From NCBI RefSeq assembly GCF_053078305.1, contig NZ_CP166875.1: a stretch of DNA of 64,000 nt; one strand, 5' to 3'. Numbering within the stretch: the first letter of the stretch is position 1; each line of letters begins with the position of its first letter. This document shows, one piece after another, positions 36,690 to 62,494 of the stretch. A program made the position numbers and the translations under genes. The notes beneath the pieces were generated by a model. That model was given only the letters and a program-made list of their open reading frames with translations, was not told the DNA's origin and made no database searches. This stretch comes from a plasmid.

Positions 36690-39410
36690 TTACATTCCAG
36701 GTGATGGTGGCTCCCATGTTTTCTCCTGCCGTAACGTATAATTATCATCATGGCTCTCCGATAAACGGGTCTGCTGTCTGATATATTCCCGGTAATACTG
36801 CTCACTGCGTTGACGGTGCAAATCCACGTCCGGACGAGTAATGGTGAAGTGTCCGTTTCCGGTTATTCCCGCTGCATTGTGCCAGGCCACCATTTCTGCA
36901 AACACATCATTAAACTGCTGGTATGAACCTTCCGGCTCAAAACCAAGCTTTCCGTTGCGGCTGAACAGAACTGGCGCAATTAAATCAAGCTTCTCTGCCA
37001 GTTCATTTCGGTCCGTGTGATGGTAGAACACAACCCGATCTCCGTAATCCGTACAGACATTTTTTCCTGTCCGCGTATCCCTGAAATGAACACTTCCATT
37101 TTTCTGAAGACGAGCTTCAAGTTTTGCAACATTATTAAAAAGTGGCGTTCCTCCGGGTTCGCAGAGTACGACACAACGATCAGCATTAGTTGTGCGTCTT
37201 TTATCCTTATTACGCGAGCGACGATCACGATAATCCCAGCCACGTAACTGCGATACTGCAGCCCTGTCTCCCTGAGCCGCCTGTTGTTCCACCCACTGCC
37301 GGTAGGACAAAGGATACCACTTACCCTCCGCAATCAGTGACAACCGCTCTTCCTTCACACTCTCCTTCAGCCTGATCAGCGCCTGCATACGCTGCACTTC
37401 CGCAATATGGTAATGCAGCTTACGCAATTGTGGATCCCGGAACTGCACACGGATATACGCCTTGCGCCGACGGCAGGCAGCATGAATTTCCCGTAACCGT
37501 TCTCCGTAACGTAAGTCGGGTTTACGCCAGTGCTCCTTCCATGCAAGATAACGCGCACGCAAATCTTCCCGCGCAGCTGCACGGGCTTCACGGCGCTCAC
37601 GACGAATCTCAGGATCGCGCCGGAAGCCTGGTTCCACTTCATCACTGGCAGCAAGTTCCGGATTGTAACGACATTCAGGCTTCACCCGTTCGAAAATATC
37701 TGCAGCCGCAATTTCAAATGGCCCGGCCTGAGGCTCGGCACGGGATAACGTCAAATCCGGGTGGATACTGCTGGCCTTCACCGGTGTCAGCTCATGATTA
37801 AACGCATCCACAATCACAAGACCATGATGCTGTTTCTGCAGCATAAGCCCTTTACGCGCAAACATCTCATGACATGCCTGCCAGCTGAAATCCCCGCCAG
37901 CTATCATCTCTTCAATCTGGCTCCTGCACTGAATAAGAGCGTATCCCCACAGACTTTCCTTATCGGAAAACAGTTCACGCTTTATAGCCCCCTGCGGACC
38001 TGTGCCCATCCTCATGCGATACCATTCGTAATCACTGACAGGCTGAGAGCCAATACTGTGTCCCCGGAATCGTTCTCCGGGAACGACCTGAGTAAAAATA
38101 TCCTTCGGTACAGGCTGCCATCCACCATCCAGATCCTGCATATAATCCAGCGTCATTAACGGCCACACACTGTCTGCACGTACTGGTGTCTGTTGTTTAT
38201 CAAATCCATCATGCAGTACCAGATGCCCGTGCTGAATCCCCATCCATAATCCCGCCTCTGCCAGAGTACGGTGTACAGCCAGGCAGCTTTTCAGTTCACC
38301 ATTGCGCGCCATTGCCGGTAAGCGTTCGGCAAAATGACGGCAGGCGTACTGTTTCAGACTCTCCGTTTCTGCCACTTTTTCCGGCCGGATATCAACGTTT
38401 ATGGCTTCCGGATCATAACGACCGGGTGTCCCCACCTGACTGAAAATATCTGTCGGTACAGGCTGATATTCCCCCAGTTTCCGCCCCAGTTTTTCAGCCG
38501 TCCATGACGGTCCGAACGAACTGAGTGCAACACCTTCCCGCGCTCTGTCCCAGCCATCCTTCACCACCAGTTCCCCTTCCTGCATCGTGATATACAGACC
38601 ATCGCTGGCCAGCCGTTTATGCAAAGATAACCAGTCCTGTGCAGGCTCTTCACGCAGCCCGGCAATCGACATCTGAGCAATATATTCCCTGAACGTCTGC
38701 TTTTTCCCGCGTCGCCAGGCATTACGGCGCTCACGTACCAGCGCTGTTTTGCGCACAATACGGTTGCCGGGTGCATGCACAAAGCAGCCATTATCCGGCG
38801 CGAATCCGTGCTTAAGTTCAAGTTCACGACATGCACGGCTGAGTTTTTCCTGGCTCCACGGAAGGCAATTGATATAGCCGGTTTCAGGGTGGACACGATT
38901 CACTGCAACATGTACATGCAGGTTATCCGTGTCTGTATGAACGGCTGCCACATACTGATGTTTTGACAGCTCAAGGGATTTCAGGGTGTGACGCACACAG
39001 TCAAAAAGCTGCTCAGAACGCGGACTTTCGTGCGCAGGCCAGGAGAGAATATAGTGAAAAACAGGATCTGTATCATCTTTGGAAAAATGAGCAAGGTCTG
39101 CTGCTTTCTGCATTTCTTCAGCCGCAGATTCAAGAGACAAACAGTTATGAAAGCAGGTCACACCATAGAAATTCACCCACTGACTGCCGTCTTTCATCAC
39201 ATCAATCAGGGAAACAAATTTTTCATTACGCAGACGTGTTGCATAATCAACAAGACGTCTGAAGCGATTCCGGTGCGGAACCTCACCTTTCACTTCCGTG
39301 TCTGGTCTGAGTTCATCTTCCGGCACATCATCCCGCACTGAGGTGTACGCAATCAGGTCTTCAAAAGAAGACTTTCCGTCGCGTCTTTTTTTCGGAATGA
39401 TGGCATTCAT
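36690..39410 (-). CDS. nikB: conjugative relaxase (NikB-like)
   Basis: 906 aa; N-terminal relaxase domain with histidine motif HVHVAVNRVH; adjacent to nikA-like gene and oriT-like site. Confidence 0.8.
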   Translation of the reverse strand: MNAIIPKKRRDGKSSFEDLIAYTSVRDDVPEDELRPDTEVKGEVPHRNRFRRLVDYATRLRNEKFVSLIDVMKDGSQWVNFYGVTCFHNCLSLESAAEEMQKAADLAHFSKDDTDPVFHYILSWPAHESPRSEQLFDCVRHTLKSLELSKHQYVAAVHTDTDNLHVHVAVNRVHPETGYINCLPWSQEKLSRACRELELKHGFAPDNGCFVHAPGNRIVRKTALVRERRNAWRRGKKQTFREYIAQMSIAGLREEPAQDWLSLHKRLASDGLYITMQEGELVVKDGWDRAREGVALSSFGPSWTAEKLGRKLGEYQPVPTDIFSQVGTPGRYDPEAINVDIRPEKVAETESLKQYACRHFAERLPAMARNGELKSCLAVHRTLAEAGLWMGIQHGHLVLHDGFDKQQTPVRADSVWPLMTLDYMQDLDGGWQPVPKDIFTQVVPGERFRGHSIGSQPVSDYEWYRMRMGTGPQGAIKRELFSDKESLWGYALIQCRSQIEEMIAGGDFSWQACHEMFARKGLMLQKQHHGLVIVDAFNHELTPVKASSIHPDLTLSRAEPQAGPFEIAAADIFERVKPECRYNPELAASDEVEPGFRRDPEIRRERREARAAAREDLRARYLAWKEHWRKPDLRYGERLREIHAACRRRKAYIRVQFRDPQLRKLHYHIAEVQRMQALIRLKESVKEERLSLIAEGKWYPLSYRQWVEQQAAQGDRAAVSQLRGWDYRDRRSRNKDKRRTTNADRCVVLCEPGGTPLFNNVAKLEARLQKNGSVHFRDTRTGKNVCTDYGDRVVFYHHTDRNELAEKLDLIAPVLFSRNGKLGFEPEGSYQQFNDVFAEMVAWHNAAGITGNGHFTITRPDVDLHRQRSEQYYREYIRQQTRLSESHDDNYTLRQEKTWEPPSPGM

Positions 39411-39421
39411 CAGCGATTATC

Positions 39422-39754
39422 TCAGCGTCCCATTAAATCTCTTCGCAGAGTATTAGCGAGTTCTGTAATAGCAACGAGAACCTCTGCATACTCTTTATCT
39501 CCCGTGCGTTTTCCTTCCACAAACAGATGCTTCTGCAGGCGACCAAGACGCATCAGCTCTTTCAAAAACTCTTCGTCAATGCGGGCATTTATCTGTTTTC
39601 CCAGCACAGTTTTTCTTATCAGAGTTGAAACTGTCAGTCCGTTTTTTTCTGCCTTTTCTCTAACAATCTCAGCCTCTTCTGGTGAAAAACGAACAGCAAT
39701 GAGGACATTCTTTTGCCGTTTCTCACTGCCACTTCGGGTTTTCTTCTCACTCAT
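39422..39754 (-). CDS. nikA: relaxosome accessory DNA-binding protein (NikA-like)
   Basis: 110 aa, basic; sits directly between relaxase gene and oriT-like inverted repeat. Confidence 0.65.
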   Translation of the reverse strand: MSEKKTRSGSEKRQKNVLIAVRFSPEEAEIVREKAEKNGLTVSTLIRKTVLGKQINARIDEEFLKELMRLGRLQKHLFVEGKRTGDKEYAEVLVAITELANTLRRDLMGR

Positions 39755-39794: not shown

Positions 39795-39855
39795 AGGTGG
39801 TAATCGTATAGCCGTGCGTGCGCGGTTATACGATTACACATCCTGTCCCGTTTTT
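39795..39855 (+). other. predicted origin of transfer (oriT): inverted repeat plus nick-region-like motif
   Basis: Inverted repeat GGTAATCGTATA (39799-39810) / TATACGATTAC (39827-39837) followed by ACATCCTGTCCCG, which resembles IncP/IncI-type nick regions. Confidence 0.5.
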
Positions 39856-41269: not shown

Positions 41270-41660
41270 CATCGTCACGACTGCCGGGTCAGCCAGGTCA
41301 TTTCCCGGAGGAGCGAAGCTCCTTCTGCCGTCCGGGTCTTCGGGGATTTCCCCGCAGTGGACCTTTCCGATGGGGGCCCGTTTACCGCCTCACGGGACAG
41401 CTGTCCGGGGGCGGACGCAAAATTTTTAGCCGGGTTCATGGCTAAAAATTTTGTGGCCGGTGCATCTCACCCTGGACAGATGGAACGGGAGGGGGTTACG
41501 TCTGCCCCCTGGAAAGTCCACAGCGGGAAACAGGCCGCAGGGGTGGCGGCAGGAGGGAAGACTGCTGCGCCATCAGGCGCAGTTTCCTCACACACCGTCA
41601 GGTGTGCAGGGAGCGCAGGTCACGGCGCGACTGAAGAAAAACGACGGCACAACAATGGCA
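41270..41660 (-). promoter_or_regulatory. repeated hairpin element, family A copy 1 (Frpo/ssi-like ssDNA promoter candidate)
   Basis: Shares blocks with 44690-45070 and 60050-60420; contains perfect hairpin AAAATTTTTAGCC / GGCTAAAAATTTT. Confidence 0.4.
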
Positions 41661-44689: not shown

Positions 44690-45070
44690 GGGCCGACCGA
44701 TTGCTCCCCCGGAGGGGCGAAAGCCCCTTCTGCCGTCCACTTCTTCGGGGTTTCTCCCCGCAGTGGACCTTTCCGATGGGGCAGCGACAGCCACGGCACG
44801 GGGCAGTTGTCCGGGGGCAGACGCAAAAGTTTTTGACGCTTGCGGCAAAAAGTTTTGTGGCTGGTACATCTCCCCCCTGGACGGCTGACACGTGTTGTGG
44901 CCGCTTCAGCCCCCGGAAAGTCCACAGCGGGAAACAGGCCGCAGGGGTGGCGGCGGAAGGGCAGACAACTGCGCCATCAGGCGCAGTTTCCTTACACACC
45001 GTCAGGTGTGCAGGGAGCGCAGGTCACGGCGCGACAGAGGCGGCGCGACCGGAACGGTCGCTGCAAGCCT
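44690..45070 (-). promoter_or_regulatory. repeated hairpin element, family A copy 2
   Basis: Same ordered blocks as copy 1; hairpin CAAAAGTTTTTG / CAAAAAGTTTTG with TTGACG in the stem. Confidence 0.4.
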
Positions 45071-45388: not shown

Positions 45389-45889
45389 TCACCGACGGAA
45401 CACATGACCGTCAATAAAGGTGAAGGAGTCCAGGAATAAATCCCGCGCATACGCCTCATAGTCAAAATAGAGCGCCACCGTCTCCGGCACGTCAGCCAGC
45501 AGGCCGGTATCACTGGCGAACTCAACCGCAAAAGCCTCCTCACTGTCAGCCTCGCCCCACCAGGCATCGCGGAAGCTGTCAAAATCCGTCTCACCGGTAT
45601 CATCCACCCAGAGACGATAAGCCTCTTCGCAGCCTTCATCCCGTGCCCGGCGGAAGCCTTCAACCCAGGCCCAGTTGATATGACATTCAGAGGCCATATT
45701 CCCCGGGAATCCCTCATAATCCTGAAACATCAGTTCAGGATCGGCTTCATCCTGGTGAAGAGCACGGCAGGCGGCGAAAAAGTCGCGCTCATCATCAAAC
45801 GTGGTCAGGTCAAACCAGCGTCCGGCGATGCTTCCACAGTTGTATTTGTGCCAGGTTCCAACGTATACAGCAGGTGCAACAACAGACAT
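45389..45889 (-). CDS. ardA: antirestriction protein ArdA (DNA mimic)
   Basis: 166-aa highly acidic protein starting MSVVAPAVYVGTWHKYNCGSIAGRWFDLTTFDDE, recognised as ArdA; SD GGAGGA. Confidence 0.85.
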   Translation of the reverse strand: MSVVAPAVYVGTWHKYNCGSIAGRWFDLTTFDDERDFFAACRALHQDEADPELMFQDYEGFPGNMASECHINWAWVEGFRRARDEGCEEAYRLWVDDTGETDFDSFRDAWWGEADSEEAFAVEFASDTGLLADVPETVALYFDYEAYARDLFLDSFTFIDGHVFRR

Positions 45890-46302
45890 TCCCGAATCCT
45901 CCATAGTCACATGTTCTGCGACACCGGGCGGTGCCGTGCCTCCATCTTTGCCGGGCCTGCAGGGATGCAAGGGCGCAAGGAAAGCCGCAGCCCGACGCGC
46001 ACGGCTGACGGGAGTTGGAGGGTGAGACCGCGAAATCTGAGCGGGTGAACGACCGGAAAATCACGGCAGACGGGAAGGAGGGACCGGGTGACCGCAGCGG
46101 TTCATCTTACCTTGCAACCCGCCCGCAGAAGCCCGGCTACGATGGAGGCACGGCACAGCCCGCACACGACGCTGAGGCCACATAACTGAAAACCCACAAG
46201 GCCATGCCCCGCATGGCCGGGTAAAGCGGAGCCTGCGGCGACATCCTTTTGCTCTTTCCGGGGACCGGCTGGAAAAGGCGGAGATTTTCCCCGCCAGCGT
46301 CA

Positions 46303-47073
46303 TCATTTCCGGATTTTCGCCAGTGCATCCGCCATGCTGCGGATTTCAGTCCGGGCTTCCAGGACCACCTCCCGCAGAATATCCCGGTCAAACCAGCGAC
46401 GGGACGGTTCATCAGGTATACGCAGCACATCGCAGGCCAGCCCACTGGACAGGATATGCTCCACACACTCACTGACCAGATACATTTCCACCGACGAAAA
46501 ACGAGCGCCCCGGTTCAGGATGGCATCGAGCACCACGGGCAGGTTTTCGTCGTCTTCATCGAGCCAGCAGGGGTGATCGCTTTCCTTCACAACCAGACGA
46601 AAGCGGCGCGTCTGGCGGGTCAGCAACGTCTGACCGGTGGTAGTCAACGCCGCACGGATACGCCGCGCATCTTCTGCCACCCGGCAACTGACACTGCATA
46701 CTGCATCGCGCACCGCATCAAGAACTGCCCTGATTTCGTCTTCGGTCAGCCATTCTCCGGCATACGGGAAAGACACCTGCGTTCCGTCTGCCGGAAGTAC
46801 CGGCAGCGACTGCCACTGACTGCCGGACAGAACAAGTTCCGCCCCGGTTCCGGTCAGTTTCTGAATGGCAGAGGCCAGGAGCGGCGGCAGTACGCCGCCG
46901 TGACGGTTGATAAGTAACGTCGCCAGCCGGGGCGCATCCAGCCGCACGTAAATGCTGATCCAGCCCGGATACTTCGGGTTCCGCTGGTCAACATCCGTTT
47001 CTTCCGGCCAGCCCTGCGCCAGCAACAGGTTGCTGGCGTGGCGATAAATCAGTGCATTCAGCGTTTCATTCAT
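46303..47073 (-). CDS. hypothetical leading-region protein (256 aa)
   Basis: SD GGGAG before ATG; same strand as ardA. Confidence 0.5.
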
Positions 47074-47117: not shown

Positions 47118-47552
47118 TCAGTCGTTTTCGTGTGTGTTGTTTTTCAGCAGGGTGCGGGCCTGATTAACCACCTCCTGACGGCGGGTGACGCATTCCGGGA
47201 CGGCGAGGCCATGATCCCGGGCGGCCCATTCACGTTTCCACAATGCCTGCTCAGCGGTCTGAATCAGGGACGCCAGCAGTTCAGCAGGGACGGTCACCTG
47301 GCGGTTTTCGCTCACGTTATTGATGATCTCCATCACCGCAGCGGAAGAAATACCGGACTCAATCCGCTGTTCTTCCGGGATGTCCTCCAGGCGTGCCAGG
47401 ACGGTCCTGATTTCATGACCGGTCAGAGAAATTTCCATACCGTCAGCCAGTGCCTGAATCTCTTCCGGGGACCAGACAACCAGCATCAGCGGCGTGTTCT
47501 CCGTATACTGCGCTGCCAGCTCACGGCAGAGCGTTTCGCATGTTCCGTACAT
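47118..47552 (-). CDS. hypothetical leading-region protein (144 aa)
   Basis: SD AAGGAGA before ATG 47552. Confidence 0.45.
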   Translation of the reverse strand: MYGTCETLCRELAAQYTENTPLMLVVWSPEEIQALADGMEISLTGHEIRTVLARLEDIPEEQRIESGISSAAVMEIINNVSENRQVTVPAELLASLIQTAEQALWKREWAARDHGLAVPECVTRRQEVVNQARTLLKNNTHEND

Positions 47553-47565
47553 TCTCGTCTCCTTC

Positions 47566-47787
47566 TCAATCTTTAAAGCACGCATCCAGTTCCAGAATTT
47601 CGGTATATGCCTCCATCAGGAGGCGGTTTGCGCGAAACAACGTCTGACGCACCAGACGTTCCGGCAGGGTGTCAGCATTAAAGCTGTACCGCCGCTCCAT
47701 CTCATTCATGGTTGTACGCAGGTCGCACATGGCATTGGCCACATCCGCCACTTCGGCGCGAAGTTTTTCGTGTCCGGCATAGTTCAT
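47566..47787 (-). CDS. hypothetical small protein (73 aa)
   Basis: SD GGAGG before ATG; start overlaps the methyltransferase stop. Confidence 0.4.
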   Translation of the reverse strand: MNYAGHEKLRAEVADVANAMCDLRTTMNEMERRYSFNADTLPERLVRQTLFRANRLLMEAYTEILELDACFKD

Positions 47788-48471
47788 TTACGCAGCCTCC
47801 GGCATAAACCAGTCATCATTCGCGGCCCCCTGCTGCATGGCCCGTTGTACGGCGGCAAGGCGTTGCTGCCCGGCACGGTGATACTGCTCAAGCAGCTCGA
47901 TACCGATATACCGGCGTCCGGACTGGAAGGCGGCCACGCAGGTTGAGCCGCTGCCTGCAAACGGGTCCAGCACAATTGCGTTCGGGTGTGTGAAGCTCTC
48001 AATCAGCGGTTGCAGGCTGGTAACGGGCTTTTCCGTCGGGTGATGACGATTGCCTGAATATTTCCAGCCCAGCACGTCCGGCAGCGGGTTTTGTGGCAGA
48101 CGTGGACGGCCTTTTGCCAGGATGTAGGCACATTCGTGGCGATAGCCCACATATGCGGCCTTCGATGTGTAGTTTTTGGTGAAGACCAGGTGACCAACAA
48201 CGCTGAATCCCGCATTTTTCCAGGCAGACATAAAACGATCGACGCGATTCCAGCCATAGAAGCTCACCATTAACGCGTCTTTTTTGAGTACGCGGTACAT
48301 CTCATTACAGGCCGGTTGCAGCCATTCATCGGTTTTATCGCCGGCAATGGTACGCCCCTGACGGTCACGAAAACCGACGAGGTACGGCGGGTCGGTGAGG
48401 ATGAAATCAATGGCGTTATCAGGGATACGGGCCATAACATCGATGCAGTTACCGAGGACAAAACGGGACAT
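47788..48471 (-). CDS. orphan DNA methyltransferase (N6-adenine/N4-cytosine class, DPPY motif)
   Basis: Motif IV FILTDPPYL; C-terminal AdoMet-binding segment VLDPFAGSGSTCVAA; SD GAAGGAG; no adjacent restriction enzyme gene. Confidence 0.7.
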   Translation of the reverse strand: MSRFVLGNCIDVMARIPDNAIDFILTDPPYLVGFRDRQGRTIAGDKTDEWLQPACNEMYRVLKKDALMVSFYGWNRVDRFMSAWKNAGFSVVGHLVFTKNYTSKAAYVGYRHECAYILAKGRPRLPQNPLPDVLGWKYSGNRHHPTEKPVTSLQPLIESFTHPNAIVLDPFAGSGSTCVAAFQSGRRYIGIELLEQYHRAGQQRLAAVQRAMQQGAANDDWFMPEAA

Positions 48472-48485
48472 ACCAAACTCCTTCT

Positions 48486-48830
48486 CTTACAGAGGGCACC
48501 GGGAGGGCCCCCCTGTGGTGCCCGTTCCCCGCTGCCTGTGGGCTGTTCACCGCGTCCGGTAACGGGTCAGGCCGACCGTGGAATACCGCAGCCGTCGTCT
48601 TTTTGACGGCAAGGTTATGCCGCGAAAGCGGCTTGAAGGGCGTTCATCAGAAAAGGGCGACGGGCTGGCGTACACTGTCACCGGTGCCAGCCGGGAGCGG
48701 TAAAAGCGCCCGTCCCGTGCCCGGCCGGACGCGGGACACTGACCACAGGCAGCGTTTATGCCGCGCCGCGTCAGCCGGCGCAGTAAAAAGAGGAGCACGG
48801 CGACATCCTTTGTCGGAAAAGAAACGGGCG
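48486..48830 (-). promoter_or_regulatory. long imperfect-hairpin element, family B copy 1 (Frpo/ssi-like ssDNA promoter candidate)
   Basis: Near-identical to 49800-50115; distal arms complementary (CGCTGCCTGTGG ... CCACAGGCAGCG); contains TTGACGG. Confidence 0.45.
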
Positions 48831-48855: not shown

Positions 48856-49782
48856 TCATCCGCCATAATGCGCCACCTTGTCGACTATCCACGCAGGTCC
48901 GGTGACTTCCGGCAGCTCATCGTCATCTGTCGGGGAAGACCATTCCAGTTCCCCCCACAGCACATCAACGAGCTCTCCGCGCTCATACAACTGCCAGCCA
49001 CAGAAATTGCAGCCCTGTTCGGCGTACCAGTGCTCCAGCGTGCAGCCGAAACGGCGGCTTAATTCTGCAACAACGTCGCTTTCCGGCTGACACCACGGCG
49101 TGTCGAAATCTACCTGAATGAAGTTTTCCCCCTGACTGCTGATATTCAGGTCATACCCACAAGGCCACTTCACGCCATACCGTTCTGTATACCAGTGATA
49201 TGCAGAAGGAACACCGTTCAGAACACCGCCGTTAAAGCCATTCACTTCAATATCCAGGCGGGTCGGCAAAACCGTCAGCAGGTCAAACGGCATGGTTTTT
49301 TCCGGCAGTACGTTGTCACACAGACGGTTCCACCACACCGATACATCCTCGTTACCCCAGATGTCACACCAGTCACCTCTTTTTGCGGTGAAATGCACAG
49401 TGATAGTTTCCCTGACATCATCCGGTAACTCTTCCCAGCGACGCTGTCCAGTACCGCTCTGCAGCCAGAGTTCATGCAGCATCAGGCAGTTTTGCTCATC
49501 CAGCAGTACACCGTTCTGCAGGTGTGTCAGCCAGCGGGTGAACGCGATATTTTCCGGTGATACAGCACCACGTCCGGCAGCCGTCACTCCGGGGCACTGC
49601 TCAGAGCGGATATTTTCAGTGATCTGCAGAAGTCCGGCACTTCCGGCCAGAAACAGCTGAATACCTTCATTTGTGGCGCGGCGATAAAACGGTGTGACTG
49701 CACCGCTGGCCAGTCGTTTAATCTCAGCAATCTGTGCCGGTTCACCAGAAAAATACATACGATTCGAGCACCAGTTTGGCAT
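48856..49782 (-). CDS. hypothetical leading-region protein (308 aa), Trp/Cys-rich
   Basis: SD GAGGAG before ATG 49782; directly downstream of element B2. Confidence 0.5.
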   Translation of the reverse strand: MPNWCSNRMYFSGEPAQIAEIKRLASGAVTPFYRRATNEGIQLFLAGSAGLLQITENIRSEQCPGVTAAGRGAVSPENIAFTRWLTHLQNGVLLDEQNCLMLHELWLQSGTGQRRWEELPDDVRETITVHFTAKRGDWCDIWGNEDVSVWWNRLCDNVLPEKTMPFDLLTVLPTRLDIEVNGFNGGVLNGVPSAYHWYTERYGVKWPCGYDLNISSQGENFIQVDFDTPWCQPESDVVAELSRRFGCTLEHWYAEQGCNFCGWQLYERGELVDVLWGELEWSSPTDDDELPEVTGPAWIVDKVAHYGG

Positions 49783-49799
49783 GGGAATTCTCCTCACAG

Positions 49800-50115
49800 G
49801 AGCACCGGGAGGGAGCCCCTGTGGCGCCCGTTCCCCGCTGCCTGTGGGCTGTTCACCGCGTCCGGTAACGGGTCAGGCCGACCGTGGAATACCGCAGCCG
49901 TCGTCTGTTTGACGGCAAGGTTATGCCGCGAAAGCGGCTTGAAGGGCGTTCATCAGAAAAGGGCGACGGGCTGGCGTACACTATCACCGACGCCAGCCGG
50001 GAGCGGTAAAAGCGCCCGTCCCGTGCCCGCCGGACGCGGGACACTGACCACAGGCAGCGTTTATGCCGCGCCGCGTCAGCCGGCGCAGTAAAAAGAGGAG
50101 CACGGCGACATCCTT
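49800..50115 (-). promoter_or_regulatory. long imperfect-hairpin element, family B copy 2
   Basis: About 97% identical by eye to copy 1 over roughly 310 bp. Confidence 0.45.
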
Positions 50116-50159
50116 TTCCCCTGAACATCCGTCAGCCTTTCTCTGCGGCAAGATCAATC

Positions 50160-50388: not shown

Positions 50389-51360
50389 ATGATTAAGATA
50401 TTCTGTGATGATGGTTCTACAGCGGTTAAGCTGGCATGGTTTGAAAACGGGGAACTAAAAACCCTCATTAGTCACAATTCTTTCAAGGAAGGCTGGAACA
50501 CATCAGGATTTGGCAGTGAGAAAACTTATAATTACTTAGTCGATGGAGAGAAATATGCGTTTGATACACATAACCCATCAGCAATAGTCACAACCAATAT
50601 TGAGTTTCAATATAGTGTAGAAAATCGTCTCGCTGTACATCACGCACTACTACAAACAGGAATGGAGCCTGGGGATGTAGAGCTTTGGGTTACATTACCT
50701 GTATCTGAATATTTCACTACAGATATGCAAGAGAATTCGGATAACATAAGAAAAAAAATAGAAAACCTGAAAAAAGAAATTACACTGAATAAAGGCAGCG
50801 TATTTTCAATCAAGAAAGTTCATGTATTACCCGAGTCTCTACCTGCAGCGTTGACCTCTCTCGAAGAGGATAAAGTCAGTGATCTTGAAACGTCCCTTGT
50901 CGTCGATCTTGGTGGAACAACTCTTGATTGTGGCGCTATAGCTGGCAGATATAAAAATGTAACACAAGTATCCGGAGAACCTGGTCTTGGCGTAACTCTG
51001 GTAACAACGGCGACAATGAATGCCCTGAAACAGGCAGGAACGCATACCAGCTACTATATTGCAGATCAACTGGTTAGAAACAGAAATGCTGATGATTTAT
51101 TCGAAATTGTTGTTAATGACAGCAGTAAAATAGATGATGTGAAATCAGTAATTGAAAACAGTATTACAAGACTTTCAGACAGAGTTATAAATCATTTACA
51201 CTCGTACAAAGGGATAAATCGTATATACATGACTGGTGGTGGTGCGGAACTAATCTACCCTGCAATAAAAAAAGCATTCCCCTTATTAAAGGATAAAGTA
51301 AAAATTTTACCAGATGCGCAATTAGCCCTTGTTATTTCTATTGCTGAAATAAATCGATAA
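50389..51360 (+). CDS. parM: actin-like plasmid segregation ATPase (ParM/StbA family)
   Basis: N-terminal IFCDDGSTAVKLAW and phosphate-2 motif VVDLGGTTLD; overall resemblance to R1 ParM; 323 aa. Confidence 0.75.
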   Translation: MIKIFCDDGSTAVKLAWFENGELKTLISHNSFKEGWNTSGFGSEKTYNYLVDGEKYAFDTHNPSAIVTTNIEFQYSVENRLAVHHALLQTGMEPGDVELWVTLPVSEYFTTDMQENSDNIRKKIENLKKEITLNKGSVFSIKKVHVLPESLPAALTSLEEDKVSDLETSLVVDLGGTTLDCGAIAGRYKNVTQVSGEPGLGVTLVTTATMNALKQAGTHTSYYIADQLVRNRNADDLFEIVVNDSSKIDDVKSVIENSITRLSDRVINHLHSYKGINRIYMTGGGAELIYPAIKKAFPLLKDKVKILPDAQLALVISIAEINR

Positions 51361-51371
51361 TGAGGTACAGG

Positions 51372-51923
51372 ATGAGTGATGAACGTCGTAAATTATGGCT
51401 ATACTTATATCCTGATGAGCCACAGCAAAAATCCGCAATAGAAACCATTGAAGAAATACCTCAAAGACAACGTTCTGATTTCTTCAGAGATAGTATTGTT
51501 GCAGGTATTGCATTATCAAAACTCGATAAACGATTACCTGCACTTGTATCTATGTTACTACAGCAAGATAGTAATATAGATACTCTTGTACGTATTTTAA
51601 AAATACTATTCCCCAAGCTTGATATTGACTCAACGGAAGATAAATCTACACTCTGTGCCGTTGCTTGGCAAAAAAGATGTCGGGATGAATTACAACAAGG
51701 CACACCATGGTCTGCCTGGTTTGCGATTAGTGAGGATGAATATAATCATCATCTTAATCATCCAGAATCAAACAGTCAGGTACGTGCATTATGGGCTTAT
51801 GATGAAAACGAGCAGAAAAAGGATATACAGGATAAAGAGAGAACGCCCTTTCCGGAGGCCAACACCAATACAAGTTCAGAAACATTGAGTAATGCTAAAA
51901 AATTATTTGGTAATTCAAATTAA
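51372..51923 (+). CDS. putative partition adaptor (ParR/StbB-position)
   Basis: Immediately follows the ParM-like gene; no motif recognised, assignment by position only. Confidence 0.35.
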   Translation: MSDERRKLWLYLYPDEPQQKSAIETIEEIPQRQRSDFFRDSIVAGIALSKLDKRLPALVSMLLQQDSNIDTLVRILKILFPKLDIDSTEDKSTLCAVAWQKRCRDELQQGTPWSAWFAISEDEYNHHLNHPESNSQVRALWAYDENEQKKDIQDKERTPFPEANTNTSSETLSNAKKLFGNSN

Positions 51924-54183: not shown

Positions 54184-54635
54184 TAATACCCCGACAAGAT
54201 TAAATTCTGGTTAACGATATCATTATACAGCGAATAATATAATTATGGTTCACGTATTATTATCCGTGACTCTTTCCTGGTAACTCCCGCATAATAACTT
54301 CACTTTTCCAGTATTCCAGAAGATGATGTTTTTTCCTCGATAATAAAAATGTGCCAATATGGAAATAAGAAATCGGATTTTTTATCAGCATACGCAAATT
54401 TTCAGATAACAATGAATACAGATGTATTTTATATACACAGATAAAACCGCGCAACAGACATAAATATGACAGTAGCATGAAAAAGCAGAGAGAGACAGGG
54501 TGATACAGAAAAGTAACTATTTTTTTAGCTATAGTATTATTGGTTTTACCTATTTTCGTGATTGTGTTTCTGTATATTGGGGGTTCGCGCCCATTTCCTC
54601 TAAAAGTCTCACCTTGCTTAGGTAATTAATTGAAT

Positions 54636-55217
54636 TTATTTATAAAACGTTGCAATTTTAGCATCATTTTTTATTGTTCTTTTTAACCTGAAGTACGTCG
54701 ATCGAGAGATACCTGTTTTTTCTGTCACACTGCCCAGAGATTCTCCCTGTGATATAAGCTCCAACGCTGTAGGCGTTCGTGGATGCTTCTTCCTGCCAAA
54801 TTTTACGCCTGCGGCAAGTGCCGCTATTCTTCCGTCGTTTGTCCGCTCCAGAATACGCTCACGTTCCGCTTCAGCTACAGCAGCAAGGATTTGGATAACC
54901 ATTTTGCCCATTGTCCCTTCTGTACTGAGACCGTTCTCCAGGAACCGGATGGCGATCCCCTTTTTGTAACAGCTATCAACCACACGAATCATGTCAGCAG
55001 TGTTACGCCCCAGTCGGTCCATTTTTGTACAGATGATTACGTCGTCTTTCTCTGCACGGGCCAACAACCGCTGTAGTCCTTCCCGTTCATCAGTTGCGCC
55101 AGTCATCATATCCGTAAAAATACGATCTTCCCGTACCCCGGCATTTTTTAGCTCCGAGATTTGATGTGTTAGCTTCTGATGACTGGTTGATACCCGTGCA
55201 TACCCCAATAACGCCAT
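54636..55217 (-). CDS. tnpR: serine recombinase (resolvase TnpR)
   Basis: N-terminal LLGYARVSTSHQ catalytic motif; C-terminal HTH. Confidence 0.8.
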   Translation of the reverse strand: MALLGYARVSTSHQKLTHQISELKNAGVREDRIFTDMMTGATDEREGLQRLLARAEKDDVIICTKMDRLGRNTADMIRVVDSCYKKGIAIRFLENGLSTEGTMGKMVIQILAAVAEAERERILERTNDGRIAALAAGVKFGRKKHPRTPTALELISQGESLGSVTEKTGISRSTYFRLKRTIKNDAKIATFYK

Positions 55218-55373
55218 TTTTAGTCTCACTTATCGTTTTTGACACTGCATGGTATCATAATGTACAAAATACGATTTTTGAAACCTGCTTTTATGCTGTT
55301 TTAGACAGGTATCAGATATCTTAATATTTGATACTAGCCATATTTAACAAATATTTAGCATTTTGGTAAATGT
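55218..55373. promoter_or_regulatory. res site region between divergent tnpR and tnpA
   Basis: AT-rich 156-bp divergent intergenic region; subsites not resolved. Confidence 0.4.
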
Positions 55374-58300
55374 ATGCAGAAGTACAAGAAAAGAATTAGT
55401 ATATTAACAAAAAGTGAAATAAATGAATTATATCAAGTCCCCTCTTTTAATCCTGTTGAAAGGGATGAGTTTTTTTCGCTGGATATCAGCCTTAAAAGAG
55501 AAATTGATAAAATAATAAATATAGAAAGCAGGGTGTATCTGATATTAATAACAGGGTATTTCAGATATAAACCTGTGATTCCTGAATTTACATTAAAAGA
55601 CGTAAAAAGGGATGTGAAATATATTATCCAGACATATTATAAAAACGAAAGTACTAATCTCAATTTAAACATACCTAAAAGTACAAAGTACCGCCTTGTT
55701 AAACGAATGCTTTCTACTCTAGGATTTGAACAACTCACCCCATCTATAAAAAATGAGTTAAGTGAACGTCTGAATGATGTTGCTACTATATGTATGGAAC
55801 CAAAATATATTTTTGATGAATTACTTGCTTTTTTAGGACAGCGGCGTATAGCTCTTCCTGGATACAGTACTGTCCAGAACCTCGTTTCAGATGCTTTAAA
55901 CTTTGAAAGGAAAAGGACAATTAATATTTTGTCAAAGAGAATTTATCCTGCCACTGCACAAAAGATTACATCCATCATCCATGATGATGGAATATTAAAT
56001 TCCATCAGGGGATATAATTATAGCACGAGAGACTTCTCAGCATCAGAAATAGAAAATGAATTAAGAACTCACAATGTGATAAGTAGTATTTACTATGAAA
56101 TAAAAGATATAATTAATTCATTAGGTATATCCCAGGGAAACATGGAGTACTATGCAACTATCGTAAAACACAGTACAACATTCAGACTTAAGCGACACCC
56201 TAAATGGCAAGGAATACTTTATTTGTGCTGCTACTTGTACTTCAGATACAGAGAGATAAATGATAAAATAATCACAGCCTTCAGATATTTAGTAAAAAAA
56301 CATAAAGACGCTTCAGTTTTGTTTGCAAAAGCTCGGGCAACAGAGGAAATAGATCTAATAAATAAAAAGCTTAAGTTTGCGAGTAAAATATTTAACTTCT
56401 TCGTTGATAGTAACATTGAAGACAGCATCCCTTTTGGATATGTTCGTGAAAAGGTTTTTTCACTTATATCGAAAGATGATATGCATCTTGTGAGTGAATT
56501 TTTTGACAAAAATAAAATCGATGTAATTGAATATCAATGGCAGTATATTGACAGCCATCACCTTAAGATCGCCAATTCAATCCGAAAGCTTTTTCTGGCT
56601 ATAGATATAGTATATGACAACGAGAAGTCTGTTATTGGCCAGCAAATTACTGCTGCCAAGGATGATCTCAGAGGAAAAGGAAAGCTGGATGCTAAGGATC
56701 TGAGGGTAATTCATCCATCCGAGAAAAATTACATTGTAAAAGAAGGAGAAATTAACACTCAACGATTCGAATTTCATATGTACAGCAGGGTATCTAACCA
56801 TCTGGAAAACGGTGTCTTTTATGCTGCGGAGAGTGAACAAAACAAGAGACTGGAAGATGATCTCATAGAACGAAGTTACTGGCATAAGAATAAATCGATT
56901 TTGATAGAGAAAACAGGCCTTGAACGACTTATCACACCAATAACGCAGACTCTTAATGAGCTGGAGAATACCTTTAGCGATAAACTGGCTCGTATAACCA
57001 TTGGAATAAACTCAGATGCTAATGAGTTTGTGAAAAAACAACCACACTCCAACAGATTACAGTGGAGTCTGGCCAGTAAAAAATGGAAGACCAGCATCGA
57101 TAATCCGATTTACAATCAGATAAAAAATATCGGAATAGTTGACGTAATGAAGTATGTAAACAATGAGACGAATTTTTTGTCTGTGTTTAATGCCATATCA
57201 TCCAGGAAAAATAATCTTGAAGCTGACTATAATGACCTTCTTGCCTGTATATTTGGTAATGGCGCAAATTATGGTGTTCACAGAATGGCATCTGCATCAG
57301 ACCGTAGTATTGGAATACTACGTGATGTGAATGACAAATTCATTCGTCCAGAAACAACAGGAATGGCCAACACAGTAATATCTGATGCAATTGCAAATCT
57401 TTCTGTATATAAATACTGGACGATAAATGAAGATTCTCCATTTGGAAGTGTTGATGGGCAGAAGCACACTTGCAGAATAAATACATTTAAAGCCCGTTAT
57501 TCTGCCAAGTATTTCAGAAAGGGGAAAGGGGTTTCTGCGATGACACTGGTATCTAATCATGTGCCATTATCAACTGTGGTAATTTCTCCAAATGAATATG
57601 AAGGTCATTTTGCATTTGACTTGTTATATAACAACACCAGTGAAATACAACCAAAGTCATTAGCGACTGACAATCATGGTATAAACAACGTTAATTTTGC
57701 GATTCTTGACATTTTTGGCTATCAGTTTTCACCACGTTATGCAAAATTCAAGAAAATATTTAATGAATTATTTGATGTTATACTGGAGAGTGATAAACTC
57801 ATTATAAAACTTAAAAAACAATTTAACTTTAAGCTCATTGAACATGAATGGGAAAACATCCAACATATTATTTGTTCTTTAAGCAGAAAAACAACCATTC
57901 AAAGTACGGTTGTTAAGAAGTTATCTAATACAAAGCGTAGCAACAAGACATTAGCAGCACTTCGGGAGTATGACCGAGTTATAAAATGCATATATGTCCT
58001 GGATTATGCTGACAATAAAACCTTAAGGCAATTTGTGCAACAAGCACTGAACAGAGGTGAAGCTTATCATCAACTAAGAAGAGCAATAGCATCAGTAAAT
58101 GGAAATCAATTTCGCGGTGGTAATGACTACCAAATAGATCAATGGAACGACTGTGCGAGGTTAATAGCTAATTGTGTAATCTATTATAATTCAGCAATAT
58201 TATCCAGGCTGGTCGAGAAATTTGAAAAAGAAAATAATAAAAAAGCGATAGATGTTCTGGCTAACTTATCCCCAGTAGCATGGAGACACATTCTCCTTGG

Positions 58301-58412
58301 AGGGAATTATTCTTTTGAAGATCAAGTTGCGATCACAAATTTGGACAGTCTTTTGGAGGGAGTAGACCCACTAAGTGATATCGGAGATATTGAGTCCGAA
58401 TATGACGGTTAA
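55374..58412 (+). CDS. tnpA: Tn3-family transposase TnpA (1012 aa)
   Basis: Size, N-terminal region and position inside the IR-bounded element. Confidence 0.8.
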   Translation: MQKYKKRISILTKSEINELYQVPSFNPVERDEFFSLDISLKREIDKIINIESRVYLILITGYFRYKPVIPEFTLKDVKRDVKYIIQTYYKNESTNLNLNIPKSTKYRLVKRMLSTLGFEQLTPSIKNELSERLNDVATICMEPKYIFDELLAFLGQRRIALPGYSTVQNLVSDALNFERKRTINILSKRIYPATAQKITSIIHDDGILNSIRGYNYSTRDFSASEIENELRTHNVISSIYYEIKDIINSLGISQGNMEYYATIVKHSTTFRLKRHPKWQGILYLCCYLYFRYREINDKIITAFRYLVKKHKDASVLFAKARATEEIDLINKKLKFASKIFNFFVDSNIEDSIPFGYVREKVFSLISKDDMHLVSEFFDKNKIDVIEYQWQYIDSHHLKIANSIRKLFLAIDIVYDNEKSVIGQQITAAKDDLRGKGKLDAKDLRVIHPSEKNYIVKEGEINTQRFEFHMYSRVSNHLENGVFYAAESEQNKRLEDDLIERSYWHKNKSILIEKTGLERLITPITQTLNELENTFSDKLARITIGINSDANEFVKKQPHSNRLQWSLASKKWKTSIDNPIYNQIKNIGIVDVMKYVNNETNFLSVFNAISSRKNNLEADYNDLLACIFGNGANYGVHRMASASDRSIGILRDVNDKFIRPETTGMANTVISDAIANLSVYKYWTINEDSPFGSVDGQKHTCRINTFKARYSAKYFRKGKGVSAMTLVSNHVPLSTVVISPNEYEGHFAFDLLYNNTSEIQPKSLATDNHGINNVNFAILDIFGYQFSPRYAKFKKIFNELFDVILESDKLIIKLKKQFNFKLIEHEWENIQHIICSLSRKTTIQSTVVKKLSNTKRSNKTLAALREYDRVIKCIYVLDYADNKTLRQFVQQALNRGEAYHQLRRAIASVNGNQFRGGNDYQIDQWNDCARLIANCVIYYNSAILSRLVEKFEKENNKKAIDVLANLSPVAWRHILLGGNYSFEDQVAITNLDSLLEGVDPLSDIGDIESEYDG

Positions 58413-58721: not shown

Positions 58722-59069
58722 TTATATGCGGATTCCAGCGCGTTCCGTTCGTTTCGGGTGCTTCCAGTTGATACCTTCAAGAAGCATGGATAACTGAGCC
58801 GGAGTAAGGTGCACCTTGCCGTCACGGGTGACTGGCCAGACGAAGCGGCCCCGCTCCAGGCGTTTGGTGAAGAGGCACAGTCCGTCACTGTCAGCCCACA
58901 ACACTTTTATCTGGTCACCCCGGCGTCCGCGGAAGATGAACAGGTGTCCGGAGAACGGGTCATCCTTCAGGACGTTCTGAACTTTTGATGCCAGGCCGTT
59001 AAAGCCATTTCGCATATCGGTGATACCTGCAACCAGCCAGATACGCGAACCTGCAGGGAGAGATATCAT
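58722..59069 (-). CDS. IS66-family accessory protein TnpB (orf2)
   Basis: 115 aa with RIWLVAGITDMRNGFNGL motif. Confidence 0.65.
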   Translation of the reverse strand: MISLPAGSRIWLVAGITDMRNGFNGLASKVQNVLKDDPFSGHLFIFRGRRGDQIKVLWADSDGLCLFTKRLERGRFVWPVTRDGKVHLTPAQLSMLLEGINWKHPKRTERAGIRI

Positions 59070-59746
59070 CAGTGGCTGCTCCCTTTTATTTCGCGGATAA
59101 GTGTCTGTAATAACGCCGGCGTCAGTTTACCTTTAAGCCTGAGAGTTCCGGCCGGCAGAACCAGCTCACAACACAGACTGTCGGACGGTGTATTTATCTG
59201 CTCTGGTTCCTGTGCGGGGGCCGGGATTTTATTATCCGGCTCCGGCGTTAACGTCACGGGAAGCAGTGCCGGCATATTTTTTCCGGAAGGCAGCAGGCCA
59301 CCTTTCCGGTATTGATGGCGCCAGTTGAAGAGCAGGTTATCGTTGATTCCGTTTTCCCGGGCGATCTGCGCCACACAGGCTCCGGGCTGCAGTGACTGCT
59401 CCACTAAGGCGATTTTAAACTCATAAGGGAAGTTGGGCCGCCGGGGACGTTTTTTTACCACGGGGGCTTCGGATATAACGGTGCTTTCAGGACGTACGAC
59501 TGGTACCGTGGAAAATTGTCCGTAAAGGCAGGCATCAAGTTCCTGCTCCGACATGCCTGCGGGCAAAGGCCACGAAAGGCCAGCTCTCCGAAAGCGCACG
59601 AACATACTACAAACTGTTGATTTTGGTACACCCAGGCGACGCCCGGCCACAACCCGGGGTAAATGTTCTTCAAAGTGAAGACGTAAAGCTTCAGTGATCC
59701 AGGTCCGGTGTTTCATACGATAGTGTCCATTAAAAATGATGGACAT
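59069..59746 (-). CDS. IS66-family orf1 (HTH transposase accessory protein); true start may be 59716
   Basis: C-terminal half FPYEFKIALVEQSLQPGACVAQIARENGINDNLLFNWRHQYR typical of IS66 orf1; stop overlaps tnpB start. Confidence 0.6.
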   Translation of the reverse strand: MSIIFNGHYRMKHRTWITEALRLHFEEHLPRVVAGRRLGVPKSTVCSMFVRFRRAGLSWPLPAGMSEQELDACLYGQFSTVPVVRPESTVISEAPVVKKRPRRPNFPYEFKIALVEQSLQPGACVAQIARENGINDNLLFNWRHQYRKGGLLPSGKNMPALLPVTLTPEPDNKIPAPAQEPEQINTPSDSLCCELVLPAGTLRLKGKLTPALLQTLIREIKGSSH

Positions 59747-60049: not shown

Positions 60050-60420
60050 GTTCCCTCCGGTATTCACCATCACCTGTTTGAGAACCTTCGCCGCAAGGGG
60101 CATCACTGCCACGGCCGGAAACGACTGTCCGGGGGCAGACCGCAAAAGTTTTTGCCTGCTTTTGGGCAAAAAGTTTTGCGGGATGTGCATTTCACCCCTG
60201 GACTGGCGGAGACGGTTGTGGCTGTCTTTGCCCCCGGCGACAGGGGCTTAAACAGGTGTATGGCACCGGACACAACAACGGGCAGGGACCCGCCGCAACG
60301 ACGAAGAGCGCGTGCGCGAAACGGCGTTGCCCCTTACATCCCGGCGGCCTTTTGCCGGGATGCCAGGAGCGCAGGCCACGGCGCGACAGAGGCGGCGCGA
60401 CCGGAACGGTCGCTGCAAGC
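60050..60420 (-). promoter_or_regulatory. repeated hairpin element, family A copy 3
   Basis: Shares the CAAAAGTTTTTG hairpin and the 60-bp block CGCAGG(T/C)CACGGCGCGACAGAGGCGGCGCGACCGGAACGGTCGCTGCAAGCC with copy 2. Confidence 0.4.
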
Positions 60421-61289: not shown

Positions 61290-62009
61290 TCACGCCGCCT
61301 CCCGGAGTTTGTTCGGCACCATCCACCGCTCCATCTCACGGACAGCGTGACCCGCCTCCCTTGCTGCCATACCTGCCTCTGCGATGACCTGCCAGAATGG
61401 CATATCCTGCCACTGCCAGCGTTCCATCCCGGCCAGTGACGGAAAACGCTCACCCCACTGCCAGAACAGGGTTTCCAGGTCATGCTCTGCCACCCGGTCA
61501 CTCCAGCGTGCATACCAGCTTCCGACTGTTTCCGGTGAATGGAACGCCAGTTCGATTTCAGCCTGAGCGACCAGCGTCTGGTACGCACGGGCTTTCTGCT
61601 CTGCCTCCCGTGCCTGCTGGCGGCTGTACTTCTGCATGACCAGCACGGATTTATGGCGACTGCGTTCCCTGACACGGAACCGCACCGACGGGAACAACCG
61701 CTCTGCTGCATCACCGGGAAGGGGAAGGAGGCAGACCTCGCCCTGTGTTTCAATCAGCACATCGACGGCATACAGCCACTGAGAACGGTTGCCGCGCAGT
61801 TCTTCTGCGGTCAGGGACGGCATGAAAAATCGCAGGTCAGACAGCGAAATCCTGCGGCTTCCGTTCAGACAGCGGAAAAACGCCCCCGCATACGGATATT
61901 CCGCCAGCGTGTTACCCTGGTGGCGGCGTTTTTCTGTCTCCGCCACCGCCCGCCATGCGGCCTGTTGCTCTGTGCTGAGAGGAACCAGTGCCTGTGAACG
62001 TGCGCTCAT
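61290..62009 (-). CDS. psiA: plasmid SOS-inhibition protein PsiA
   Basis: 239 aa starting [22 protein letters not shown]; coupled downstream of psiB. Confidence 0.8.
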
Positions 62010-62440
62010 GCCTGACCTCCTTCCGCCATCAGGATATGGATGATGTCACTGACGCTGTATCCCTGTTCATCCAGTGATGCCGCCAGTGCCAGTGAATGGC
62101 TGACAGCTTCCGGTGCAAACCGCCGCTGCACCTGAACCACCGCAAACGGCTCACCACCGGCATTCACCAGAACCAGCACCCAGACCTGAGAGACATCGCC
62201 CGGTGAACATAACGCCAGGTGAAAACGTTCGTGGGCAGGCGTGAAACGGACCTGGACGGGGAAAAAGCCGCCGAACTCGCTGCCGTACTCGCCATTCATC
62301 GTCCAGTTGTCCGGCGCATCCAGTTCCCGCATCACGGCGTGTGTCAGCTCACGGCGTTCATCACTTCCGGCAGCCCGGATATCTTCATATTCCTGTGCGC
62401 TCATGGTCTGTAATACATTCAGGGTCAGTTCAGTTTTCAT
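62006..62440 (-). CDS. psiB: plasmid SOS-inhibition protein PsiB
   Basis: [41 protein letters not shown]... recognised as PsiB. Confidence 0.9.
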
Positions 62441-62494
62441 CACGGTATCTCCCTTGCTGCCGCCCCGTCTCCGGCGGGGCGGTGTGGTTGTTCA

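Follow-up and report, generated by a model that had tools for sequence, protein, structure and literature searches.

The question raised by this locus is whether a DNA methyltransferase gene that stands without a restriction partner in the leading region of a plasmid serves to protect the plasmid's own DNA as it enters a new cell. The window, by which we mean the whole stretch of 64,000 nucleotides that was analysed (NCBI RefSeq assembly GCF_053078305.1, contig NZ_CP166875.1; one strand, 5' to 3'), carries such a gene at 47788-48471. An initial annotation, made from the sequence alone, had placed it behind a hairpin element and considered it consistent with protective self-methylation of incoming DNA. 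We find that the gene is an ortholog of M.EcoGIX on an IncK2/Z plasmid; the system to which it belongs is already known, and the locus adds no new principle to it. In our judgement its product, a beta-class N6-adenine methyltransferase that stands alone, very probably works while the plasmid is becoming established and protects entering DNA. The features on which the argument turns are collected in Table 1.

Table 1. Features of the methylase locus and its surroundings, in window coordinates (the slash marks the nick).
Feature	Position	Strand	Details
nikB relaxase gene	36690-39410	-	
nikA	39422-39754	-	adjoins oriT region
oriT nick region, IncI-type	39800-39850	+	inverted repeat GTAATCGTATA...TATACGATTAC, then ACATCCTG/T
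Class-1 hairpin, first copy	41304-41634		
Class-1 hairpin, second copy	44708-45038		83% similar to the first
ardA antirestriction gene	45389-45889	-	166 aa; from translation; annotated ArdA in pDW54_2 and pESBL
Class-2 hairpin, hybrid, single copy in window	45897-46248	+	joins ychA directly to ardA
YchA-like gene (pESBL Hp11 homolog)	46303-47073	-	last in methylase operon
DUF1380-family gene (pESBL Hp10 homolog)	47118-47585	-	same operon as methylase
73-aa ORF (pESBL Hp9 homolog)	47566-47787	-	ATG abuts methylase TAA (TAAATG)
Orphan beta-class N6-adenine DNA methyltransferase gene, M.EcoGIX ortholog	47788-48471	-	227 aa; from ORF, profiles and identity
AdoMet-binding motif I FAGSGS	47944-47961	-	residues 171-176; C-terminal to motif IV
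Catalytic motif IV DPPY	48382-48393	-	residues 27-30
Class-3 hairpin, copy 1 ("family-B" of the initial annotation)	48482-48811	+	330 nt; directly upstream of methylase
DUF1281-family gene (pESBL Hp8 homolog)	48856-49797	-	between the two class-3 hairpins
Class-3 hairpin, copy 2	49788-50119	+	upstream of DUF1281 gene; 96.4% identical to copy 1

A single ATG-to-TAA open reading frame fills the methylase interval exactly and is intact, with a Shine-Dalgarno sequence (AAGGAG) 7 nt 5' of its ATG. Three profile libraries agree on what it encodes: Pfam N6_N4_Mtase (PF01555) matches residues 21-201 with an E value of 1.8e-38 (model positions 1-219 of 221), the NCBIfam profile PRK13699 "DNA methyltransferase" (NF010253) covers the protein end to end, scoring 500.6 bits where the curated cut-off is 244 bits (positions 1-227 of 226), and the PADLOC model MTase_II (PDLC03228) matches end to end with 473.9 bits. 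The earlier description of a DPPY-motif methyltransferase is borne out in full. The DPPY motif is followed by HPTEKP (residues 144-149) and by FAGSGS, the last unchanged across all four aligned methylase alleles, and the resulting motif order IV...X-I is the circular permutation of the beta class; the DPPY sequence itself indicates the N6-adenine form of motif IV. The nearest PDB matches (CcrM, M.RsrI and DpnA-type enzymes) align only across the C-terminal ~65-70 residues, and structures of N4C enzymes occur among the more distant ones. These distant matches, together with the fact that PF01555 spans both N6A and N4C enzymes, are what might favour regarding the product as an N4-cytosine methyltransferase, or the frame as an inactive relic. 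We find either scarcely credible, as the frame is intact and has kept its Shine-Dalgarno sequence and start codon, its motif is DPPY and not SPPY, all of its motifs are the same as those of the active M.EcoGIX, and the product of that ortholog is m6A (PMC7736820).

The absence of a cognate restriction endonuclease, which the initial annotation had also remarked upon, withstood a wider search. Among the eight neighbouring open reading frames (DUF1281, the 73-aa ORF, DUF1380, the YchA-like protein, ArdA, a 144-aa ORF, ParM and a ParR-like protein) none matched a restriction enzyme or defence model in NCBIfam and PADLOC, and the DUF1281-family gene matched nothing in either library. No restriction endonuclease was found among the 10 open reading frames at 52-64 kb of the window, which were searched with NCBIfam only, and none is annotated over the matching region of the near-identical plasmid pDW54_2. 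The methylase is a true orphan; with no adjoining restriction gene, membership of a type II restriction-modification system was rejected for it.

The protein is identical to M.EcoGIX of pESBL-EA11, a plasmid of E. coli O104:H4 (NC_018659.1, 54782-55465), at 214 of its 227 residues (94%), in an alignment free of gaps, and the two share their length of 227 aa, the motifs DPPY, HPTEKP and FAGSGS, and the lack of a restriction partner. The likeness extends to the locus as a whole, which in both plasmids lies in the leading region in the same orientation with the order DUF1281, hairpin, MTase, Hp9, DUF1380 and YchA; the backbones differ, that of the window being IncK2/Z-like and that of pESBL IncI1. 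At 100% nucleotide identity the gene is that of WP_021511694.1, annotated as "DNA methylase" on the IncK2/Z plasmid pDW54_2, and homologs of M.EcoGIX had already been recognized on R64 (YfbB, 94% identity) and on F (YfeA, 91% identity) (PMC4288162). At least 5000 plasmids in PLSDB carry the gene at 90% nucleotide identity or more; among the PLSDB matches listed, the coding sequence is 90-99% identical and the carriers are Escherichia, Klebsiella, Salmonella and Shigella, with mostly conjugative plasmids.

This identity matters to the question posed above through what is known of M.EcoGIX. When the gene was deleted, recipients with EcoGIII or EcoRI took up the plasmid by conjugation up to 1000-fold less efficiently, and a K. 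pneumoniae isolate ~9-fold less; plasmid stability and transfer into recipients without a relevant type II restriction enzyme were both unchanged (Yamaichi et al., PMC4288162). The enzyme is promiscuous and modifies only part of its sites, about 40%, placing m6A within SAY on single strands; its activity is killed by changing DPPY to APPA, and it associates with DNA polymerase I (PMC7736820). In that work no M.EcoGIX modification was found in the donor, and protection was lost when oriT was inverted, which implies that the enzyme is made in the recipient and there acts on the strand that enters. A 2025 study that combined donor elimination with RNA-seq found the leading-region operons of pESBL, that of M.EcoGIX included, to be induced within 15 min, by ~500-fold at most across genes; it called the hairpin that lies 5' of M.EcoGIX a single-strand promoter, of "class 3", and located the start site by 5' RACE (PMC12672017). 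More generally, orphan MTases are among the gene families most enriched in leading regions, where all are transcribable from the T-strand (Samuel et al., PMC11541004). From the 94%-identical ortholog we infer that the allele in the window would have the same single-strand SAY activity, would protect against restriction, would be induced early and would use the corresponding start site, and the proposal of protective self-methylation thereby gains support by analogy, the gene order being the same in the plasmid where protection was demonstrated experimentally. The remark in the initial annotation that the target specificity is unknown is out of date for the M.EcoGIX family, whose SAY context and single-stranded substrate have been described (PMC7736820). 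Sites of this context are dense on the plus strand of the window, at about 70 per kb; the methylatable A of CTGCAG, the EcoGIII site, is not obviously covered by SAY.

If the enzyme acts on the entering strand, the geometry of the locus with respect to oriT becomes important. The oriT nick motif lies at 39840-39846 on the plus strand, and we take the nick itself to be near 39846 by analogy with the ATCCTG/Y consensus of IncP and IncI plasmids. A nick motif on the plus strand makes this the transferred strand, which enters toward higher coordinates and is the template for minus-strand genes, and such genes in the leading region are consequently transcribed back toward oriT. The leading-region genes are all on the minus strand; the methylase lies ~8 kb from oriT, its gene begins ~8.6 kb from the inferred nick, and it thus belongs to the leading region and is read from the transferred strand. 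Both the oriT-nikA region and the leading region are collinear with those of pESBL. Along the direction of transcription the order is hairpin, methylase, 73-aa ORF, DUF1380 and YchA-like gene, and the TAAATG junction suggests translational coupling of the methylase and the 73-aa ORF in one operon.

The placement behind a hairpin in the leading region, as the initial annotation had it, is likewise upheld, and the hairpin can now be given an identity. Over its 330 nt, copy 1 shares 97.3% identity with the element upstream of M.EcoGIX on pESBL, and in the best 5000 PLSDB matches it keeps at least 95% identity, a closer conservation than that of the coding sequence. Folded as single-stranded DNA it gives a single long, imperfect hairpin at -106.9 kcal/mol, where shuffled controls had a mean of -81 kcal/mol (z = -6.1), and copy 2 folds comparably with z = -5.2. 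The complementary strand of copy 1 folds nearly as well (-103.6 kcal/mol, z -5.8); folding therefore does not give the active strand, and the assignment to the plus strand rests on the oriT geometry. A tool scan returned no sigma-70 promoter on the minus strand in or near the hairpin, and a relaxed scan, which allowed spacers of 15-19 and accepted 8 or more matches out of 12, returned no sigma-70-like hexamer pair on either strand of the hairpin region, which fits an element that is silent as duplex. By its homology to the pESBL element, and with no -35 or -10 boxes located, copy 1 is best read as a class-3 single-strand promoter on the plus strand, predicted to transcribe toward lower coordinates.

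Class 3 was described as distinct both from class 1 (Frpo/ssi) and from class 2 (the ardA and klcA hairpins), and F also keeps class-2 and class-3 elements (PMC12672017). The methylase hairpin resembles the class-1 elements of F and ColIb-P9, which are likewise long imperfect T-strand hairpins upstream of leading-region operons and active only before the duplex forms; both that study and our sequence comparison set it apart as the separate class 3. Assignments of copy 1 to the other two classes were tried and rejected: blastn with a word size of 7 detected no similarity either to the two class-1 copies in the window, the first of which is identified by its 95-96% identity to the pDW54_2 element just upstream of ssb, or to the class-2 hairpin. 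No Rfam family was matched at 39-52 kb. We also observe that "hypothetical protein" ORFs are called wholly within both class-3 hairpins, and these are probably spurious.

These observations bear on a more conventional reading, namely that the methylase is a type II enzyme, left over or solitary, that modifies duplex DNA sequence-specifically in the established host, serving Dam- or CcrM-like epigenetic regulation or immunity to a restriction system encoded elsewhere. Generic PADLOC type II MTase models do match it, and its C-terminal AdoMet domain is found also in CcrM and M.RsrI. Yet neither an adjacent restriction gene, nor one in the searched parts of the window, nor a duplex sigma-70 promoter upstream was found, and at least 5000 plasmids hold the gene at the same place and in the same orientation within the leading region. 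Identification with the named duplex enzymes was rejected, the protein scoring far below the equivalog cut-offs both for CcrM (84 against 830 bits) and for the YhdJ type, PRK11524 (79 against 292 bits). Finally, in steady-state cells no SMRT signature is detectable for M.EcoGIX or for the 99%-identical M.EcoMVIII (PMC4659465). We therefore consider a duplex methylase very improbable here.

Taking the gene instead as a methylase of plasmid establishment, we envisage the following sequence of events. NikB would nick oriT near 39846, and the plus strand would pass into the recipient with its 5' end first. Once ~9 kb had entered, copy 1 of the class-3 repeat would fold on the single strand and be taken by host RNA polymerase as a promoter, and the resulting transcript, running toward oriT, would cover the methylase, the 73-aa ORF, DUF1380 and ychA. 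The methylase would then place promiscuous and partial m6A, in SAY context, on plasmid DNA that is still single-stranded or just replicating, possibly while associating with DNA polymerase I. By the time the complementary strand had been made, many restriction sites would already be hemimethylated and so spared from cleavage. Formation of the duplex would at the same time erase the hairpin and switch the methylase off, and established hosts would be expected to be without plasmid-dependent methylation.

The association with DNA polymerase I invites an alternative in which the methylase mainly interferes with, or couples to, PolI-dependent replication, restriction protection being a side effect. 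It might, for instance, handicap co-resident ColE1- or p15A-type plasmids or ssDNA phages, or it might coordinate lagging-strand synthesis for the strand that enters. Besides the association itself, Fomenkov et al. (PMC7736820) offer in favour of this that PolI-dependent replicons fall in copy number, that leading-strand modification is asymmetric solely where the origin depends on PolI, and that growth of M13 is suppressed. The copy-number effects, however, came from artificial constructs with constitutive expression, whereas the only phenotype of a knockout in native context is reduced transfer into R-M-positive recipients, with no defect in stability or in R-M-free recipients (PMC4288162); the methylase also sits amid anti-restriction genes of the ardA and klcA type. 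A primary role in replication is in our view improbable, and we retain protection of the entering DNA as the very probable function.

A practical consequence concerns how such a function should be looked for. The initial annotation had suggested comparing methylomes of plasmid-bearing and plasmid-free cells and would have taken the lack of a plasmid-dependent motif as refutation. By analogy with M.EcoGIX this comparison would probably be negative even if the protective reading is right; the enzyme falls silent when the plasmid becomes duplex, so that a negative outcome is to be expected and would not refute it. Comparing methylomes at steady state is the wrong way to test for this function.

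The window does depart from the pESBL arrangement in two respects that allow some speculation. The first concerns the enzyme: of its 13 substitutions relative to M.EcoGIX, 6 (at 105, 109, 122, 124, 125 and 127) are grouped between motifs VIII and X, residues 105-127 reading A..G..RPRLPQ in the window and S..A..SPARPR in M.EcoGIX. As these six fall in the part of the protein that in beta-class enzymes holds the target-recognition region, the context preference of the window allele could differ somewhat from that of M.EcoGIX. This haplotype is common, and it is found also on a K. pneumoniae IncF plasmid. The second is the duplicated hairpin: copy 2 is present on pDW54_2 and on the IncFIA plasmid p4171-2, and pESBL is without it at that position. 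Since no such hairpin precedes the DUF1281 homolog of pESBL, a DUF1281 unit appears not to be among the six early operons described for that plasmid. It is conceivable, if rather doubtful, that the duplication makes the DUF1281 gene a separate zygotic gene of establishment or anti-defence and that the methylase haplotype also prefers a context other than SAY. If true, a separate early DUF1281 gene or an altered methylase context would be a modest extension of the known system.

Rearrangement is also evident closer to oriT. The window is 99.8-99.9% identical to pDW54_2 and is without a 6.6-kb block of that plasmid that holds klcA, ssb, a parB-like gene, psiB and psiA; the klcA-ssb-psiB segment that in pESBL separates the methylase operon from ardA is likewise missing. 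Class-2 hairpins lie upstream of both klcA and ardA in pESBL, the class being that defined in PMC12672017. By blast the pDW54_2 flanks of the 6.6-kb deletion overlap at the hybrid class-2 hairpin of the window, and ardA now directly follows ychA. The same ychA-ardA junction is found in 26 of the best 5000 PLSDB matches (e.g., in Shigella sonnei plasmids, at 98% identity), which suggests recurrent recombination between the hairpins. With one class-3 copy duplicated and 6.6 kb lost by way of class 2 in a single window, these hairpins appear to act as substrates for recombination and thereby to remodel the leading region. Past 54.6 kb the window holds a serine recombinase, a Tn3-family transposase and IS66 accessory genes, together with an F-like psiA-psiB-parB segment.

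How, then, does this locus compare with other methylases known to guard or mark DNA? A functional analogue is DpnA of Streptococcus pneumoniae, an enzyme of the M.DpnIIB type that places m6A on incoming ssDNA, which then survives host restriction once it has become duplex. The DpnA chains 5hek and 5hfj share the C-terminal AdoMet domain with our methylase (E about 1e-11), an alignment of only ~65 residues. Unlike the plasmid gene, DpnA is chromosomal, lies within a complete R-M cassette, is induced with competence and is specific for GATC. CcrM, M.RsrI and YhdJ belong to the same Pfam family and have the same motif permutation, and they differ in being larger enzymes of duplex DNA with defined sites. 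A second plasmid-borne beta-class m6A methyltransferase characterised as ssDNA-specific, SAY-directed and PolI-associated is M.BceJIII of the Burkholderia cenocepacia plasmid pBCA072 (PMC7736820), which comes from another host and plasmid lineage and is likened here by description. The closest relative by far is M.EcoGIX itself, and the gene can be annotated with confidence as its ortholog, driven by a predicted class-3 ssDNA promoter. The pairing of a single-strand promoter with an ssDNA methylase, which helps resistance plasmids past restriction barriers, is established for M.EcoGIX on plasmids of the IncI1 and IncF groups.

We note that the methylase, an orphan m6A methyltransferase orthologous to M.EcoGIX, carries a central variable block (residues 105-127) that occurs as two haplotypes independent of plasmid type; A105/G109/R122/R124/L125/Q127 is common to the window methylase and a K. 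pneumoniae IncF plasmid, and the alternative S/A/S/A/R/R is common to pESBL (IncI1) and an IncFIA plasmid. Since the haplotypes do not track plasmid type, this comparison suggests that methylase alleles have recombined with one another.

Features of the window discussed here, with coordinates in nucleotides
Feature	Coordinates	Strand	Remark
Class-1 (Frpo/ssi-like) hairpin, full	41304-41634		leading region
Class-1 (Frpo/ssi-like) hairpin, full	44708-45038		leading region
ychA-ardA arrangement	45389-46303		junction 45897-46248
Methylase	47788-48471	-	
Class-3 hairpin, copy 1	48482-48811		
ORF, 101 aa	48547-48852	-	wholly within class-3 hairpin
DUF1281 gene	48856-49797		
Class-3 hairpin, copy 2	49788-50119		
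ORF, 91 aa	49853-50128	-	wholly within other class-3 hairpin
ParM-like actin ATPase (323 aa) and 187-aa partner	50389-51923	+	directly past class-3 copy 2
Serine recombinase	54636-55229		
Tn3-family transposase	55374-58412		
IS66 TnpB and TnpA	58722-59746		
Class-1 match, partial, third	60125-60390		distal F-like segment
psiA, F-like	61290-62009		
psiB, F-like	62006-62443		
parB-like ORF, F-like	62495-63970		

A ychA-like gene is followed directly downstream by ardA, with a single hybrid class-2 (ardA/klcA) hairpin between them. Compared to the near-identical IncK2/Z plasmid pDW54_2, the window is without 6.6 kb (klcA, DUF1380, ssb, DUF905, parB-like, psiB and psiA), apparently lost via recombination between two class-2 hairpins. 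The same junction is present in at least 26 PLSDB records among the 5000 best-matching listed, for instance at 98% in Shigella sonnei NZ_OP038272.1. The two full class-1 hairpins share 83% identity, and one of them is 95-96% identical to the pDW54_2 element upstream of ssb, although ssb itself is missing here.

Collinearity with pDW54_2 stops at 54580. In the distal segment psiA, psiB and the parB-like ORF share their strand with the leading-region genes and are ~87% identical to the I-type genes, and the plasmid looks like a mosaic with F-type SOS-inhibition genes ~22 kb from oriT.

The divergently oriented ParM-like gene and its partner, of lower G+C content, mark the end of the gene block templated by the transferred strand. 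The ORFs within the class-3 (M.EcoGIX-type) hairpins, whose counterparts are labelled "hypothetical protein" in RefSeq, are probably spurious gene calls across a structured DNA element.

The second class-3 copy, 96.4% identical to the first, lies 5' of the DUF1281 gene, and this placement predicts that DUF1281 would be separately induced from single-stranded DNA in backbones carrying both copies. Both are also found in pDW54_2 and in the IncFIA plasmid p4171-2, whereas pESBL has unrelated sequence in place of copy 2.
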